DNA of 64,000 nt from Escherichia phage CJ20. A program made the translations under genes and the position numbers. Shown here piece by piece: positions 19,906-35,918 of this stretch (within the stretch, counting starts at the first letter, position 1; the number at the start of each line of letters is the position of its first letter). The stretch lies in the sequence record MT533174.1; one strand, given 5' to 3'. The notes below the pieces were generated by a model. The model was given only the letters and a program-made list of their open reading frames with translations. It was not told the origin of the DNA and searched no databases.

Positions 19906-20238
19906 ATGAACATAAAGACTTACAACGAGTTTTTAGCCGAATCCGCCATCAATGAGACCAAATCAATTGATGATAGTGAAGGCTCTCTGAAATTTGGTTT
20001 AACCAAAAATGCAGATGGTGTTTTCTTTCAGATTGGTAATGAACGTTTTCAAACGTCCAAATATTCCAAAGCTGCAGTTGAAGCTGTCCTGAAATCTGGT
20101 GGCAAGTGGAAAGGCAAAGAAGGTACTAAAGAAATTGGCATCGCTGTTGACGGTGGTATGGCTTATTTTAAAATTGGCGATGAACAATTTATTATGTCTG
20201 CTCGCGGACGTAAAGAACTGGCAAAACTTTATAAATAA
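19906..20238 (+). CDS. internal-protein-like small protein with capsid-targeting-type N-terminus (MNIKTYNEFLAES)
   Basis: N-terminus resembles the T4 internal protein targeting sequence MKTYQEFIAEA with Glu at the protease-site position; located at the T4 ipI locus next to 57B. Confidence 0.6.
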   Translation: MNIKTYNEFLAESAINETKSIDDSEGSLKFGLTKNADGVFFQIGNERFQTSKYSKAAVEAVLKSGGKWKGKEGTKEIGIAVDGGMAYFKIGDEQFIMSARGRKELAKLYK

Positions 20239-20246
20239 GGTTTCTT

Positions 20247-20519
20247 ATGAAAACTTTCAATGAATTTTTCAACGAGTCCCAACTGAATGAAGAAGTAAAA
20301 ATTAGTAAAGCAGTCAAAGCTATGATTGACAATATCAATCACCTGTACAGCATTGACTTGACTGACCATATAACAATTGGTAACAAACGCAACTTTTTCG
20401 CGTTTGACATCTCTGAACTTGACCAGAACCAAATTAATAACATTGAGCGTTTTGCCAATGACAAGGGTCTCCGCCATGAGACAGCTGGTTATAAAAAATA
20501 TGCAATTTATCTAAAATAG
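20247..20519 (+). CDS. internal-protein-like small protein (MKTFNEFFNES)
   Basis: Capsid-targeting-like N-terminus; tandem with neighbours. Confidence 0.6.
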   Translation: MKTFNEFFNESQLNEEVKISKAVKAMIDNINHLYSIDLTDHITIGNKRNFFAFDISELDQNQINNIERFANDKGLRHETAGYKKYAIYLK

Positions 20520-20527
20520 GATTTCAA

Positions 20528-20827
20528 ATGCAAACTTTTCATGAATTTTTGGTAGAAAACAATTACCTGGCGGAAGCAAAAACCTGGCCTCTGGGTCTTC
20601 AGAAGAAAAACACCTATAAATGGGTTGACTTCAAAGGTAAAGGCGACGCTGAAGACTTTGACCAGCTGCGTAAAAATGGTTATACCTTCCTTGACTCTAA
20701 CTATAACAAAATTACCTCTTTTAGTCAGAAGTCAAGCATTGCCTTCATTGAAACTGGTAAGAACTCTCCTAAAGATATTTCTGACGACTTCGCCGCTTAT
20801 GGTGTAATTCGTGGTTCAAAAATGTAA
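20528..20827 (+). CDS. internal-protein-like small protein (MQTFHEFLVEN)
   Basis: Capsid-targeting-like N-terminus; GDAEDF...NGY-F motif shared with the ORF at 34591. Confidence 0.55.
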   Translation: MQTFHEFLVENNYLAEAKTWPLGLQKKNTYKWVDFKGKGDAEDFDQLRKNGYTFLDSNYNKITSFSQKSSIAFIETGKNSPKDISDDFAAYGVIRGSKM

Positions 20828-20856
20828 TGTACATGATGGGATAGTTGCAGTATAAT
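20828..20856 (+). promoter_or_regulatory. early-promoter-like element with -10 inside the palindrome GGGATAGTTGCAGTATAATTATCCC
   Basis: TGTACA then 17 bp then TATAAT; palindromic -10 region; followed by the leader CCATCAACTACTGGAG. Confidence 0.45.
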
Positions 20857-20882
20857 TATCCCATCAACTACTGGAGCTACTA

Positions 20883-21161
20883 ATGAAAACTTATCAAGAA
20901 TTTATTAACGAATCAATTAGTCACCCGGATATGCTGGAAGACCTGAAAGGACATCTGATGGTTAAGGCCAAACCGGTTGATGGTGGCGCATTTGAGTTGT
21001 TTCTTGTTAAAGGCGAAAACGGTCCTGATAACAAGAAAGTTTCAGCAATGATGTTGACTAAAGGTTACAAAGTCAGTTCTTCCTGGAATGCTCCATTCAC
21101 TTACGCGGTAAGCCCTCGTGAACTGAAAAAAGTTAAAGCTGGACAATATACAAAAATTTAG
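20883..21161 (+). CDS. internal-protein-like small protein (MKTYQEFINES)
   Basis: Capsid-targeting-like N-terminus. Confidence 0.6.
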   Translation: MKTYQEFINESISHPDMLEDLKGHLMVKAKPVDGGAFELFLVKGENGPDNKKVSAMMLTKGYKVSSSWNAPFTYAVSPRELKKVKAGQYTKI

Positions 21162-21190
21162 TGTACGTGATGGGATAGTTGTAGTATGAT
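21161..21190 (+). promoter_or_regulatory. early-promoter-like element (GTGTAC, 18 bp, TATGAT)
   Basis: Same architecture as the 20828 element; followed by the leader CATCAACTACTGAGGAGAATAAAATG. Confidence 0.45.
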
Positions 21191-21218
21191 TATCTCATCA
21201 ACTACTGAGGAGAATAAA

Positions 21219-22661: not shown

Positions 22662-22735
22662 GGCCCTGTAGCTCAATTGGTTAGAGCATCCGGCTCATAA
22701 CTGGCAGGTTTCCGGTTCAAGTCCGGATGGGGCCA
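22662..22735 (+). tRNA. tRNA with CAT anticodon (Met or Ile2-type)
   Basis: Manual fold: D-arm GCTC/GAGC, anticodon loop CTCATAA, T-arm TCCGG-TTCAAGT-CCGGA, 7-bp acceptor stem with two G-U pairs; T4 encodes a CAU-anticodon tRNA-Ile. Confidence 0.7.
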
Positions 22736-22737
22736 CC

Positions 22738-22814
22738 CGGGGTGTAGCTTAATTGTATAGAGCAACGGTCTTCTAAACCGTAGGTTGTGGGTTAGAATCC
22801 CGCCACCCCGACCA
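22738..22814 (+). tRNA. tRNA-Arg (TCT anticodon)
   Basis: Manual fold: acceptor CGGGGTG/CACCCCG, anticodon stem ACGGT/ACCGT with loop CTTCTAA, T-arm GTGGG-TTAGAAT-CCCGC, encoded CCA; T4 also encodes tRNA-Arg(UCU). Confidence 0.8.
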
Positions 22815-24553: not shown

Positions 24554-24583
24554 GTTTTACTTCCAGGTGGGATAGTGTATAAT
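24554..24583 (+). promoter_or_regulatory. early promoter-like (GTTTTAC, 17 bp, TATAAT within palindrome GGGATAGTGTATAATTATCCC)
   Basis: T4-early-type -35/-10 spacing; the palindrome occurs in reverse-complement orientation at 34868. Confidence 0.5.
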
Positions 24584-24624
24584 TATCCCATACTGAGTTA
24601 ACAAATAAAACACTGGAGAATAAA

Positions 24625-32464: not shown

Positions 32465-32909
32465 GAAAGTGAAGGAATTATCTGCTGGCATTATTTTCAT
32501 GACTGAAGATAAAGAGTTATTTATGGGGCGTGTGACTGGTTCTCGTAAACCAGGTATGCCTGCGCACAAATGGGACATCCCTAAGGGTCATGTTGAAGCT
32601 GGTGAATCCCCGATTGAAGCTGCTATCCGTGAAACCGAAGAAGAAACCGGGTTTACCCAATATGACCCGGCATTCTTAAAAGACCTGGGTGAGTTCCGTT
32701 ATTCAGATAACAAAAACCTTCACCTGTTTTTGTATACGGTTCCTGTCGAGCATGAACAATTCAGACATAGTAAATGCTCTGCCTATCATACCTTCCCGGA
32801 TGGCAGTTCGGTCCCAGAGTTTGATGCGTTTGCTCTGATTAAACCGAGCCAATGGCAGTACGTGATGGGCAAATCGATGTACAAGGTACTGACTCAAATT
32901 TTCGGATAA
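32454..32909 (+). CDS. nudE: Nudix hydrolase NudE
   Basis: 151 aa, the same as T4 NudE; Nudix box GHVEAGESPIEAAIRETEEETG; adjacent to gene e as in T4. Confidence 0.88.
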   Translation: MMSKKVKELSAGIIFMTEDKELFMGRVTGSRKPGMPAHKWDIPKGHVEAGESPIEAAIRETEEETGFTQYDPAFLKDLGEFRYSDNKNLHLFLYTVPVEHEQFRHSKCSAYHTFPDGSSVPEFDAFALIKPSQWQYVMGKSMYKVLTQIFG

Positions 32910-32935
32910 TAAATACCCCTATATAAGGGGGTATT

Positions 32936-33427
32936 ATGAATATATTCGAAATGTTACGCATAGATGAAGGTTGTAAGTTGGATTTGTATAAAGATACTGA
33001 AGGCTATTGGACCATTGGTATCGGGCAACTGATAACTAAGAACCCATCAAAAGATGTTGCTCGTGCCGAGCTCGACAAGCTCATGGGTCGCGTCTGTAAT
33101 GGTCGCATAACCCAGCACGAAGCTGAAACATTGTTTAACCGTTCGGTCGAAAAAGCTAAAGCCGGAATCTTGAGACACCCTGTCTTAAAACCTGTTTATG
33201 ATGTGCTAGATGAAGTTCGTCGTTGTGCACTCATTAATATGGTATTCCAGATGGGTGTTGCTGGTGTTGCTGGTTTTCCTAAGGGTATGCGATTGTTGAA
33301 GGCCAAATCGTGGGAAGCCGCCGCCAAGGAACTGGCCGACTCGAGATGGTATAAAGTCCAGACTCCGAACCGAGCCAAACGAGTTATAGAAACGTTCCGT
33401 ACCGGAACTTTTAGCGCATACAAATAA
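32936..33427 (+). CDS. e: endolysin (T4 lysozyme e)
   Basis: 163 aa; [12 protein letters not shown]...[13 protein letters not shown]...[12 protein letters not shown]...[14 protein letters not shown] closely matches T4 lysozyme with Glu11, Asp20 and Thr26 conserved. Confidence 0.95.
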
Positions 33428-33435
33428 GGTAAAAT

Positions 33436-33738
33436 ATGAAAACGTATAAAGAATTTATCACCGAAGCGCGCGTAAGTGCAGGTAAATTAGAAGCCGCTGT
33501 AAATAAAAAGGCCCATTCATTTCATGATTTACCAGATAAAGACCGTAAGAAACTTGTAAGCCTTTATATTGACAAAGAGCGTATTCTAGCTCTCCCTGGC
33601 GCTAACGAAGGTAAACAGGCCAAGCCTTTGAATTCTGTCGAAAAGAAAATTGATAACTTTGCTTCTAAGTTCGGCATGTCTATGGATGACCTTCAGCAAG
33701 CGGCTATCGAAGCAGCTAAAGCAATTAAAGGTAAATAA
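33436..33738 (+). CDS. internal protein (ipII/ipIII-like) with capsid targeting sequence [11 protein letters not shown]
   Basis: 100 aa; targeting-type N-terminus; located between e and denV, where T4 has ipIII and ipII. Confidence 0.7.
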
Positions 33739-33740
33739 CA

Positions 33741-33769
33741 GTTTACTTCCACGATACGTGTGATATAAT
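33741..33769 (+). promoter_or_regulatory. early promoter (GTTTAC, 17 bp, TATAAT) upstream of denV
   Basis: Canonical -35/-10 spacing, followed by the hairpin GTTCTCCTAC...GGAGAAC and the denV ribosome-binding site. Confidence 0.5.
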
Positions 33770-33797
33770 GTTCTCCTACAAACATAGGAGAACAAAC

Positions 33798-34214
33798 ATG
33801 ACTCGCATTAATTTAACCCTGGTATCTGAACTCGCTGACCAACATCTTATGGCTGAATATCGTGAACTTCCTCGCGTGTTTGGTGCTGTTCGTAAGCATG
33901 TGCAAAATGGTAAAAAGGTGTCTGACTTTAAAATCCCATCATCTTTTCTTTTAGGGACTGGTCATGTCACCTTCTTTTATGATAAGCTTTTGTTCCTTAA
34001 AAACCGGCATCAAGAACTTATTGCGGAATGTTTAAAGCGAGGGTTTAACATAAAAGATATTTCTACCCAAGATTTAAATGATATTCCTGATGAATGGAAG
34101 AATGATTATCAACCATCAATCTGGTCAATTGAAATCAGTCAAGCCAGACTGAATGAGAAAATTTCTCAAAAGCCTACCTGGTACAAATACTATGGGAAAG
34201 CTGTGTACGCTTAA
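33798..34214 (+). CDS. denV: endonuclease V (pyrimidine dimer DNA glycosylase)
   Basis: 138 aa; near-identical to T4 DenV over most of its length ([35 protein letters not shown]..., [12 protein letters not shown]). Confidence 0.95.
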
Positions 34215-34262
34215 CTAAAAAGGTTGTATAATGATTTTATCAACCAAACAATGGAATATAAA

Positions 34263-34577
34263 ATGAAAACTTATCAAGAATTTATTACTGAATCTACCCA
34301 AAAACGTGTTGAAGGCGGTTATGTCTGGATTGAACAATTAACCCCACCAAGTGAAACGAGCACGGGTTCGTGGAAAATTACTGTTGATGGCCCTGGTGGA
34401 AAACGTAAGACTATTAAAGAAATTAAAGGCTATTATGATGAAGCCAAATCATGGGCTGGTAGTCATGTAATGCAGATTAAAATTGCAAACCCGGATAACG
34501 TTCATGCGGCAAAAGCATTCCGTCGCATTGGTAATAAACTTTATGATGCGTTTTTGCGTGATTTCCCTAAAGAGTAA
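34263..34577 (+). CDS. internal-protein-like protein (MKTYQEFITES)
   Basis: 104 aa from the ATG at 34263; targeting-type N-terminus. Confidence 0.6.
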   Translation: MKTYQEFITESTQKRVEGGYVWIEQLTPPSETSTGSWKITVDGPGGKRKTIKEIKGYYDEAKSWAGSHVMQIKIANPDNVHAAKAFRRIGNKLYDAFLRDFPKE

Positions 34578-34590
34578 TTAAAGAGACATT

Positions 34591-34854
34591 ATGAAAACTT
34601 ATCAAGAATTTATTACTGAATCTGCTAAAGCTCCTACCGGTGCTTTTAAAGTCCGCGCCTTCGCTGGTGATGCTGAAGACTTTGGCACCATGAAGCGCAA
34701 TGGTTATTCTTTCTTTGGTGGCGATGGTAAAGAAATTGTTACCTATGCAAAACGCCGCGAAATCGCATTCGTGGTTGCTGGTAAGAAAGTTGATGTTGAC
34801 GATATTGAATGGGATTTTGATACCTTTGGTATTGTTTCTGGCGGTAAAGCATAA
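34591..34854 (+). CDS. internal-protein-like protein (MKTYQEFITES)
   Basis: 87 aa; targeting-type N-terminus; paralogous to the ORF at 20528. Confidence 0.6.
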   Translation: MKTYQEFITESAKAPTGAFKVRAFAGDAEDFGTMKRNGYSFFGGDGKEIVTYAKRREIAFVVAGKKVDVDDIEWDFDTFGIVSGGKA

Positions 34855-34857
34855 CTG

Positions 34858-34888
34858 TTTACTTTATGATGGGATAATTATACACTAT
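34858..34888 (+). promoter_or_regulatory. early promoter-like (GTTTAC) with palindrome GGGATAATTATACACTATCCC
   Basis: Reverse-complement copy of the 24573 palindrome; followed by the leader CCATCAACTTGGAGCGAATAAATG. Confidence 0.45.
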
Positions 34889-34910
34889 CCCATCAACTTG
34901 GAGCGAATAA

Positions 34911-35210
34911 ATGAAAACTTATCAAGAATTTATTACTGAAGCCAAAGCTCCTAAAGCATTTCAAATTGGGGTTCAGGGTAATTTAGACCAACAATATGTT
35001 GATGCTATTGTAGCAAGCCTCGGCAAGCAGGGTGTACAAGTGGATTTGGTTGATTTTACTAAAGGTAATACTTTTAATATTGTTACATCTAAAGGTTCTT
35101 TAGCTAAAGTTAAAAAGGCCTTTGGTGTAGCACAAGCATACGAAATCGACCATTCTGAATTAGAAAATAAAGGTCGCCAGAACACAATTAAAGGCTCTGG
35201 TTCTTTTTAA
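34911..35210 (+). CDS. internal-protein-like protein (MKTYQEFITEA)
   Basis: 99 aa; targeting-type N-terminus. Confidence 0.6.
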   Translation: MKTYQEFITEAKAPKAFQIGVQGNLDQQYVDAIVASLGKQGVQVDLVDFTKGNTFNIVTSKGSLAKVKKAFGVAQAYEIDHSELENKGRQNTIKGSGSF

Positions 35211-35372
35211 TAAAGGCAAACCGACCCTCTCCTCATGAACGTCGCGTCCTCTGAGTGATGGACCTTTCCCTACCTGTAATAAGGTCGAGCCCGAGTGCGG
35301 TAAGGGGTTTACATTCGGATACATGGATGAATTATGTGCCAAGGAACGGCCCCAACTTAAAAAGAGACAATT
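35211..35372 (+). other. atypically GC-rich intergenic segment, possible structured RNA or regulatory region
   Basis: About 160 bp with no convincing ORF, markedly higher GC than its surroundings, and a GTTTAC -35-like hexamer near its 3' end. Confidence 0.3.
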
Positions 35373-35918
35373 ATGAAAACGTTTTTAACCGGTAGTTATC
35401 TATCCCTGATGAATGCTTTTGCAAACCATTCTGATGCTAGAGTAGAGCACATTTGTAATAGTGGGTTTTATGTACCTGATTCACAAACCCTGTTTAAAGA
35501 ATGCTGCACCCTAAAACTTGATGGTGGACGCCAATCTGGTAAAACAAGGGCAGTATCCATTTTTGCGTCTGATTGGCTCGCAGGTGGTGGGACTGTAATT
35601 ATTTTGTCTAATTGCGCCGCGTATGCTAATGTTTCGGCTACTGCAATCCGAAAGGAATATTTTAATAACCATACAGAAAGTATTAAGCACCGTTTGTACA
35701 CTGATTCTGTTCGTAGTTTTATTGGTAACACTGCATGCAAATTCCGTGGATTATCACTTTCACGGGTTCTGTATATAATTGATGAGCCTGTTAAAACACC
35801 TGATATGGATAAGATTTATGATGCCCACATAAAGGTTGTGCATTATTGCTGTCGTGCATCATGTGAAGAAACCAATCAAACCACACGTCCTCTGTTCTTT
35901 GTGATAGGAATGCAATGA
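35373..35918 (+). CDS. putative small P-loop NTPase
   Basis: 181 aa; Walker A GGRQSGKT and Walker B-like VLYIIDEP. Confidence 0.55.
   Translation: MKTFLTGSYLSLMNAFANHSDARVEHICNSGFYVPDSQTLFKECCTLKLDGGRQSGKTRAVSIFASDWLAGGGTVIILSNCAAYANVSATAIRKEYFNNHTESIKHRLYTDSVRSFIGNTACKFRGLSLSRVLYIIDEPVKTPDMDKIYDAHIKVVHYCCRASCEETNQTTRPLFFVIGMQ

Follow-up and report, generated by a model that had tools for sequence, protein, structure and literature searches.

Eight small genes, four around denV (the endonuclease V gene) and four at a second locus, most likely encode T4-type internal head proteins, which would be packaged in the head and injected, would most likely act against host nucleases, and would be carried as swappable cassettes. 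We put the probability of this reading at roughly 0.85. The genes (B1–B4 and A1–A4) were analysed in a window of 64 kb, which is the whole stretch of DNA studied here. The finding is real and had been read correctly in the original prediction; it is already known, both in kind and in its individual members. Polymorphic leader-bearing genes at 'two Ip loci' are described in Silas 2025 (PMC12373910) and, as summarised in PMC3012670, by Repoila 1994. An anti-restriction role of T4 Ip1–3 has also been published (Silas 2025, PMC12373910).

Gene order and phage background

The stretch from e to vs.8 spans positions 32936-35918, with all genes on the plus strand (Table 1). The gene order is nudE-e-B1-denV-B2-B3-B4-vs.8, and the other locus reads 1-57A-57B-A1 to A4. 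The arrangement that had been predicted, one targeting-sequence ORF between e and denV and three after denV, was confirmed, the latter three lying between denV and vs.8. The denV gene itself does not encode an internal protein and is a conserved anchor that splits the cluster between B1 and B2. A search of the 64 kb in six frames with a relaxed leader pattern returned exactly the eight genes that had been counted before, namely B1–B4 and A1–A4 directly after gene 57B, and none elsewhere. The two Ip loci of the window (e-denV-vs.8 and downstream of 57B) were compared with the gene order of T4 and VR7. In T4, both ipII and ipIII are located between denV and e, and nothing is located between denV and vs.8. 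In VR7, the order past denV is ip10, ORF127c, ip7 and vs.8, which is collinear with B2, B3 and B4. A search against Rfam yielded two tRNAs only.

Table 1. Positions of leader-bearing genes, neighbouring genes and promoter-hairpin elements in the window. Body lengths and pI values are those of the predicted mature proteins.
Feature	Position	Strand	Product	Remarks
A1	19906-20238	+	110 aa, MNIKTYNEFLAE	first leader ORF of the ipI-locus cluster; phrog_3966
A2	20247-20519	+	90 aa, MKTFNEFFNE	phrog_7673 'internal head protein', E 2e-56; dN/dS 0.06
A3	20528-20827	+	99 aa, MQTFHEFLVE	B3 paralogue; phrog_2667
A4	20883-21161	+	92 aa, MKTYQEFINE	phrog_15565
Promoter-hairpin elements flanking A4	20817-20873 and 21151-21207			mutually 89% identical
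Further promoter-hairpin element	24554-24600			sequence features present
e (lysozyme)	32936-33427	+		upstream of B1
B1	33436-33738	+	100 aa; body 90 aa, pI 9.7	phrog_7857 'internal virion protein', E 1e-54
denV (endonuclease V)	33798-34214	+		77.5% aa identity to T4 DenV; annotated denV in relatives
B2 (Ip10-type)	34263-34577	+	104 aa; body 94 aa, pI 9.6	phrog_3966, E 2.5e-32; body dN/dS 0.37
B3 (VR7 ORF127c / RB69 ORF125c type)	34591-34854	+	87 aa; body 77 aa, pI 6.2	phrog_2667
Promoter-plus-hairpin before B4	34857-34894	+		GTTTAC, 17 nt, TACACT; inverted repeat GATGGGATA/TATCCCATC spanning the -10 region
B4 (Ip7-type)	34911-35210	+	99 aa; body 89 aa, pI 9.3	phrog_2667 'internal head protein', E 8e-43
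vs.8	35373-35918	+		downstream of B4, after a 162-nt spacer

Over 25 kb, the window shares about 96% nucleotide identity with Shigella phage SP18 and Escherichia phage VR20, and the source phage is assigned by this likeness to the SP18/VR20-like Gapriverviruses (subfamily Tevenvirinae). The gene for the protease (gene 21) and the scaffold genes for gp22, gp67 and gp68 lie outside the 64-kb window; they are expected in the source genome because SP18 and VR20, to which the window is ~96% identical, are complete T4-type genomes.

Each of B1, B2, B3 and B4 is present at 100% amino acid identity in deposited genomes, and the subsets differ among closely related Gapriverviruses. TH57 has B2, B3 and B4 at 100% identity without B1; MN01 has B1 and B4 without B2 and B3; and TH44 and phage 212 have B3 and B4 alongside other inserts. 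The August 2025 phage collection held no record with B1, B2, B3 and B4 together, and no single record in it covered 80% of the region in one place. The components of B1–B4 are all known, and their combination alone is new.

The amino-terminal leader

B1–B4 start with MKTY(K/Q)EFITE, which takes the form MKTYQEFITE in B2, B3 and B4; the leaders of A1–A4 are variants with positions 4, 7 and 10 kept. With a criterion of ~10 residues, the consensus MKT(Y/F)xEF(I/L)xE and an aromatic residue at positions 4 and 7, the leader is identified from its sequence as the T4 capsid targeting sequence (CTS), whose last three residues form the prohead-protease site (I/L)xE. For T4 IPIII, a stretch of 10 N-terminal residues is enough for packaging (PMC9026906). 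The predicted cleavage motif is ITE at residues 8–10 in B1–B4, and LAE, LNE, LVE and INE in A1–A4; all eight leaders are closed, at residue 10–15, by (I/L)xE or an equivalent site. The start of A1 at 19906 (MNIKTYNEFLAE) lies two residues before the canonical leader, which is a small correction to the ORF at the ipI locus.

The leader was surveyed in 80 denV loci and 28 57B loci from IMG/VR. The surveyed loci were also searched again with bodies alone, which was meant to lessen the circularity of a collection based on the leader. The body-only queries recovered 150 distinct ORFs in related loci: 127 with a strict leader, ~20 with close variants (MLTYQEFITE, MKNYNEFITE, MKMYQEFITE, MMTFNEFLME and others) and ~3 without a leader, i.e. 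a recognisable leader in ~147 of the 150. The 127 leaders represent 85 distinct 30-mers and encode 41 peptides; pS was 0.56 and pN 0.14, with pN/pS biased downward by the initial gathering of the set through the leader pattern. Positions 2, 3, 4, 6, 7 and 10 are near-invariant, and positions 5 and 9 are free. This pattern corresponds to the mutational data for T4, where residues 4 and 7 serve targeting and residues 8 and 10 serve cleavage (PMC9026906).

In principle, the common N-terminus could be a module for recombination or translation initiation, kept alike at the nucleotide level by gene conversion and without any role in protein targeting. The 30-nt leader is identical in B2, B3 and B4; when up to 3 mismatches were allowed, it was counted 4 times, and 100 shuffles gave an expectation of 0.00. 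In addition, the ribosome-binding site and leader mark the point where the B1 cassette starts to match T4. Where the bodies are unrelated, leaders from the same locus in a single genome also differ slightly less (4.86 differences, 6% identical pairs) than leaders from different genomes (5.52 differences, 0.3% identical pairs); this homogenisation within a locus is a small effect, suggestive in a comparison without phylogenetic control. Across phages, however, the synonymous sites of the leader vary freely while the peptide is kept, and the divergent leaders MQTFHEFLVE and MKTFNEFFNE still have an aromatic residue at both position 4 and position 7 and Glu as residue 10, the sites that experiments in T4 showed to be critical. 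The original prediction had raised the case of a likeness at the nucleotide level only. The observed variation argues for constraint on the leader at the protein level and not by nucleotide identity alone, and makes the module without targeting very improbable; the two roles are not mutually exclusive.

Bodies, cassettes and exchange between the loci

B1 is, by sequence, the orthologue of T4 ipII, with 94 of 100 residues identical over the full length (94.4% at the nucleotide level) and six substitutions (Q5K, A9T, G14S, R47K, A67S and D99G). The two proteins have the same length of 100 residues, the same leader logic and the same position between e and denV, and the T4 ipII/ipIII position suggested for this ORF thus holds. 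B1 is also 100% identical in amino acid sequence to the 'internal protein II' of MN01, which is annotated between e and denV. Unlike T4 ipII, B1 is carried by a Gaprivervirus, starts 8 nt past the stop codon of e, is not accompanied by ipIII and has no promoter-hairpin element of its own. No solved structure was found for the Ip2 sequence. The nucleotide identity to T4 of 94.4% in the B1 cassette compares with 60–71% in nudE, e, denV, vs.8 and vs.7 (68–71% for e and denV). The stretch of high identity sets in at the ribosome-binding site just before the leader and stops at the -35 box (GTTTAC) of the denV promoter, just past the stop codon. The B1 cassette is the clearest sign of recent transfer, between phage genera, with its edges at the leader and the promoter box.

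The three MKTY(K/Q)EFITE ORFs past denV had been proposed as internal head proteins, and the VR7 genes bear this out, ip10, ORF127c and ip7 matching B2, B3 and B4 in order. B2 is 99% identical to VR7 ip10 at the amino acid level (100% to TH57), B3 96.6% to VR7 ORF127c (100% to TH57) and B4 97% to VR7 ip7 (100% to TH57, TH44 and MN01). B4, B2 and B3 thus resemble the putative internal head proteins of the Ip7, Ip10 and RB69 ORF125c types (T2, Pol, JS98, RB69, VR7); at 97–99% identity to the VR7 genes and in matching order, the combination is the only difference. The structure models of B3 and B4 gave no functional clue. The model of B3 (pLDDT 67) had no fold match in the PDB with E below 1. The AF2 model of B4 (pLDDT 74, core ~80–90) has a predicted beta-alpha-beta-beta-alpha-beta, ferredoxin-like arrangement. 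A function for B4 based on its fold was rejected, as the matches were generic ones only (ferredoxin-like, ACT, S6 and BMC, TM 0.4–0.54).

Pairwise alignment of all eight bodies had been suggested as a check. An all-versus-all BLAST after removal of the leaders yielded A3/B3 as the sole homologous pair, and the eight leader genes hence represent seven body families in one genome. All eight proteins match a PHROG, and for five of them the family carries the annotation internal head protein or internal virion protein; none of the eight reached the gathering score of a Pfam family. The predicted mature bodies are 8.3–10.7 kDa, and seven of the eight are basic (pI 8.3–9.7), B3 being the exception. 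The dN/dS of the bodies is 0.26–0.38 within families, apart from the lower value of A2, and this purifying selection indicates that the leader ORFs are real genes.

The 122 leader-bearing ORFs collected from 88 related loci fall into 22 body families. Remote homology between the families was sought with hhalign and rejected, the best probability among all 22 family profiles being 12%. Since no profile links were obtained among the 22 families, phrog_2667 (A3, B3, B4) and phrog_3966 (A1, B2) probably join unrelated bodies via the common leader. For at least five body families, the locus (denV or 57B) varies with the phage: family 0 (Ip7/B4; denV locus in 13 loci and 57B locus in 4), family 6 (A3/B3), family 10 (A1; denV locus in L037 and L038), and families 11 and 14. 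Family 16 was discounted as a further case because the same stretch had been fetched twice. The B2 body family (family 4) comprises B2 and 8 further members (9 in total), and these 8 come from the denV locus without exception. Exchange of cassettes between phages and loci is real, judging from the families found at either locus together with the 94% nucleotide identity of B1 between flanks of 68–71%. The comparison of loci across T4-like genomes, which the original prediction had called for, was run on these 88 loci, and the reading of a further cluster in addition to that of the ipI locus, with cassettes passing between both, stands.

A motif GDAEDF...NGY.F...IAF had been noted in the ORFs at 34591 (B3) and 20528 (A3). 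BLASTP bore it out: over the full length A3 and B3 are 33% identical (99 aligned columns, E 2e-16), and the bodies alone, with the leader removed, are 38% identical over 61 residues (E 6e-15), GDAEDF, NGY and IAF being invariant. A3 orthologues were found in VR25 and VR20, and both A3 and B3 are present in these relatives. On account of this shared presence and of an identity of only 37–38%, A3 and B3 are old paralogues in the Ip gene pool and not a recent duplication in the source genome. Of the predicted duplication and exchange between the loci, exchange is thus borne out by the families at either locus, and recent duplication is not. A profile search against 1.84 billion representatives found no leader-less cellular homologue of the A3/B3 body; the credible matches inspected were small phage proteins with a leader, save two N-terminally truncated fragments (P0037 and P0039). 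Long multi-repeat matches to this body (P0028, P0029, P0034, P0044 and others) were rejected as compositional false positives.

Some of the cassettes are bordered by promoter-hairpin elements, which consist of a -35-like box (GTTTAC or GTACAT), a TATAAT-like box and a 9-bp inverted repeat. The element before B4 was read from the sequence together with a pattern search; such elements are absent from B1, B2 and B3, and elements of like design precede T4 ipII and ipIII. According to a published proposal, modules of T4-type phages, the IP palette included, are shuffled by way of PeSL (promoter-early stem-loop) cassettes (PMC4122927). The elements of the window are putatively similar, with a predicted early sigma-70-like promoter and stem-loop at cassette borders in a hyperplastic region. 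They differ in that the stem overlaps the spacer and the -10 box, whereas the stem-loop of the published PeSL lies upstream of the promoter.

An exact match to the late-promoter consensus of T4, TATAAATA, was found only before A2 (20230); the denV locus has one-mismatch versions only, and directly upstream of B2–B4 there is no late-promoter consensus. The latter result would suit the view that some ORFs, such as the short, acidic and hypothetically annotated B3, are decaying remnants of cassettes that are not expressed, as would the annotation as hypothetical protein only in several relatives. We regard this as extremely unlikely, since the ORFs are intact, closely spaced to the upstream gene and provided with a ribosome-binding site, and B3 is 96–100% identical in the close relatives examined. 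Moreover, the B3 body family has a dN/dS of 0.38 and has been kept in several clusters at 50% identity, none of which lacks the leader.

Proposed function in the head and in the host

In the proposed scheme, a cassette would consist of a ribosome-binding site, the conserved 10-codon CTS and an unrelated small body of 8–11 kDa that is usually basic. By analogy with T4, the CTS would dock the nascent protein on the prohead's scaffolding core, and gp21, the prohead protease, would cut after the Glu of the terminal (I/L)xE. Hundreds of copies of the mature body would then remain inside the DNA-filled head and be injected along with the DNA. For T4 itself, docking of the leader to the prohead core, its removal by gp21, retention of the body in the head and injection have been reported (PMC3012670; PMC9026906). 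Swapping between phages and Ip loci may also use the conserved leader, together with the promoter elements at the flanks, as homology patches. A literature search found no proteomic paper on Gapriverviruses.

The injected bodies would most likely be pre-made inhibitors of host defence nucleases. T4 Ip1, Ip2 and Ip3 each inhibit a distinct type IV restriction enzyme of the GmrSD family, without cross-protection, the target of Ip2 being GmrSD/BrxU from E. coli ECOR21 (PMC12373910). B1, as the orthologue of Ip2, would very probably be directed against a type IV restriction enzyme of the GmrSD/BrxU type; the targets of B2, B3 and B4 would be other variants or systems, one for each protein. For B2–B4 the anti-defence role is a reasonable extrapolation from T4 Ip1–3, for which it is direct. 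The window genes are similar to those of T4 IPI* (Ip1) and IPIII (Ip3) in the leader-and-cleavage architecture and in the two loci; their bodies are not homologous, and the mode of delivery is presumably common. No window protein was homologous to T4 IPI or IPIII beyond the leader, and in BLASTP of IPI against the eight window proteins and the 122 collected leader proteins the leader alone aligned.

The packaged proteins could instead be purely structural, i.e. basic counter-ions associated with the DNA or helpers in the assembly of the prohead core, without specific targets in the host. The basic character of seven of the eight mature bodies (pI 8.3–9.7) would fit such a role, and in T4 heads assemble more slowly when IPIII is missing, and internal-protein lysines touch the DNA phosphates (PMC9026906; PMC3012670). 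Generic charge, however, does not explain 22 unrelated body families, the differences in presence and absence among near-identical phages or the purifying selection on each specific body; in addition, B3 (pI 6.2) is not basic, and all three Ips of T4 have specific enzyme targets (PMC12373910). We consider a purely structural role improbable and favour that of injected inhibitors.

All genes of 'the two Ip loci' have been proposed to target variants of the GmrSD system (PMC12373910). Gapriverviruses are reported to be without known enzymes for non-canonical bases (PMC8056088), which makes it uncertain whether GmrSD-type enzymes are their relevant enemy. That B2, B3 and B4 (and A1–A4) are directed at other defence systems, and not at GmrSD variants, is a tentative proposal that we rate as rather doubtful. 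It would matter because Gapriverviruses are reported to have no known hydroxymethylcytosine pathway. If it is true, the A3/B3 pair would neutralise two variants of one system, and its presence in one genome would provide a natural handle on the specificity of the inhibitors.

Overall, the source phage would carry the standard T-even arsenal of injected proteins at both known loci. The ipII cassette, with 94% nucleotide identity to T4 inside flanks of ~70%, offers a clean example of recent cassette transfer. With eight leader-tagged genes and a known target for the Ip2 orthologue only, seven candidates for injected anti-defence proteins may be taken into screening on wild Enterobacteria.

Conserved spacer between B4 and vs.8

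The spacer that separates B4, the last of the leader-bearing ORFs around denV, from the downstream gene vs.8 is conserved at the nucleotide level across about 35 T4-like loci, T4 among them, and has a GC content of 49%, against 40% for the window as a whole. Since its reading frame is broken in the window and the alignment contains indels with lengths that are not multiples of three, the spacer looks like a conserved non-coding element. The T4 counterpart is annotated as codons 1 to ~40 of vs.8, and the annotated start of T4 vs.8 may thus be over-extended. A structure drawn by hand (helix 57-60/96-99 around the hairpin ACCU..AGGU) contains three base pairs with compensatory changes. The MFE z-score of the spacer was not significant, and no match to it was found in Rfam; the Rfam matches in the window were confined to two adjacent tRNA genes, which, as in T4, have the ipI-locus cluster on one side and the e.x genes on the other.

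Coordinates of non-coding features in the window
Feature	Position	Remarks
Early-promoter-like elements, intergenic	20817-20873, 21151-21207, 24554-24600, 34857-34894; also 24036, 24923, 25452, 30895	
Exact T4 late-promoter consensus	20230-20237	TATAAATA; overlaps A1 stop codon
tRNA genes, two adjacent	22662-22811	Rfam
Hairpin upstream of e	32908-32935	CCCCTATATAAGGGGG, within tacccctatataagggggta
B4-vs.8 spacer	35211-35372	162 nt

Promoter-like elements and the region before e

The early-promoter-like elements form a family with the boxes GTGTAC/GTTTAC ... TATAAT and flank small variable genes. In several of them a 9-bp inverted repeat spans the -10 box. Elements of the same design are present at T4 ipII and ipIII, but there the palindrome is different (AGAATTGTGA/TCACAATTCT). 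The exact late-promoter consensus lies only 9 nt upstream of the start of A2, the second leader-bearing ORF of the ipI locus, which is too near for a normal 5' leader. A version with one mismatch (TACAAATA) is found at the same relative position at B1, the ORF that follows the lysozyme gene e. The start codon of e itself is directly preceded by a hairpin, and 5' of the hairpin lies AATAAATA, the T4 late promoter consensus with one base changed. This looks like the arrangement at T4 e, whose ribosome-binding site is sequestered in early transcripts.

Protein families and variants of the targeting leader

PHROG 2667 unites B4 with the paralogous A3 and B3, and PHROG 3966 unites A1 with B2. When the leader (the N-terminal capsid targeting sequence) was removed, similarity was undetectable between B4 and A3/B3, or between A1 and B2. 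In the remote-homology clustering, proteins that are unrelated are probably linked through the 10-residue leader they share. P0035 (194 residues) is related to the A3/B3 body; its leader has diverged (MKSFDQYIME), and it carries an additional C-terminal domain of ~100 residues, which suggests that an A3/B3-type body can belong to a larger, putatively injected protein. The Ip7 orthologues of phages VR7 (locus L002, 3144-3443) and VR25 (L006) start with MLTYQEFITE, with Leu replacing Lys at position 2; further natural variants begin with MKNY or MKMY, and A1 carries an MN- prefix. Together, these leader variants provide a ready-made set for probing the rules of targeting.
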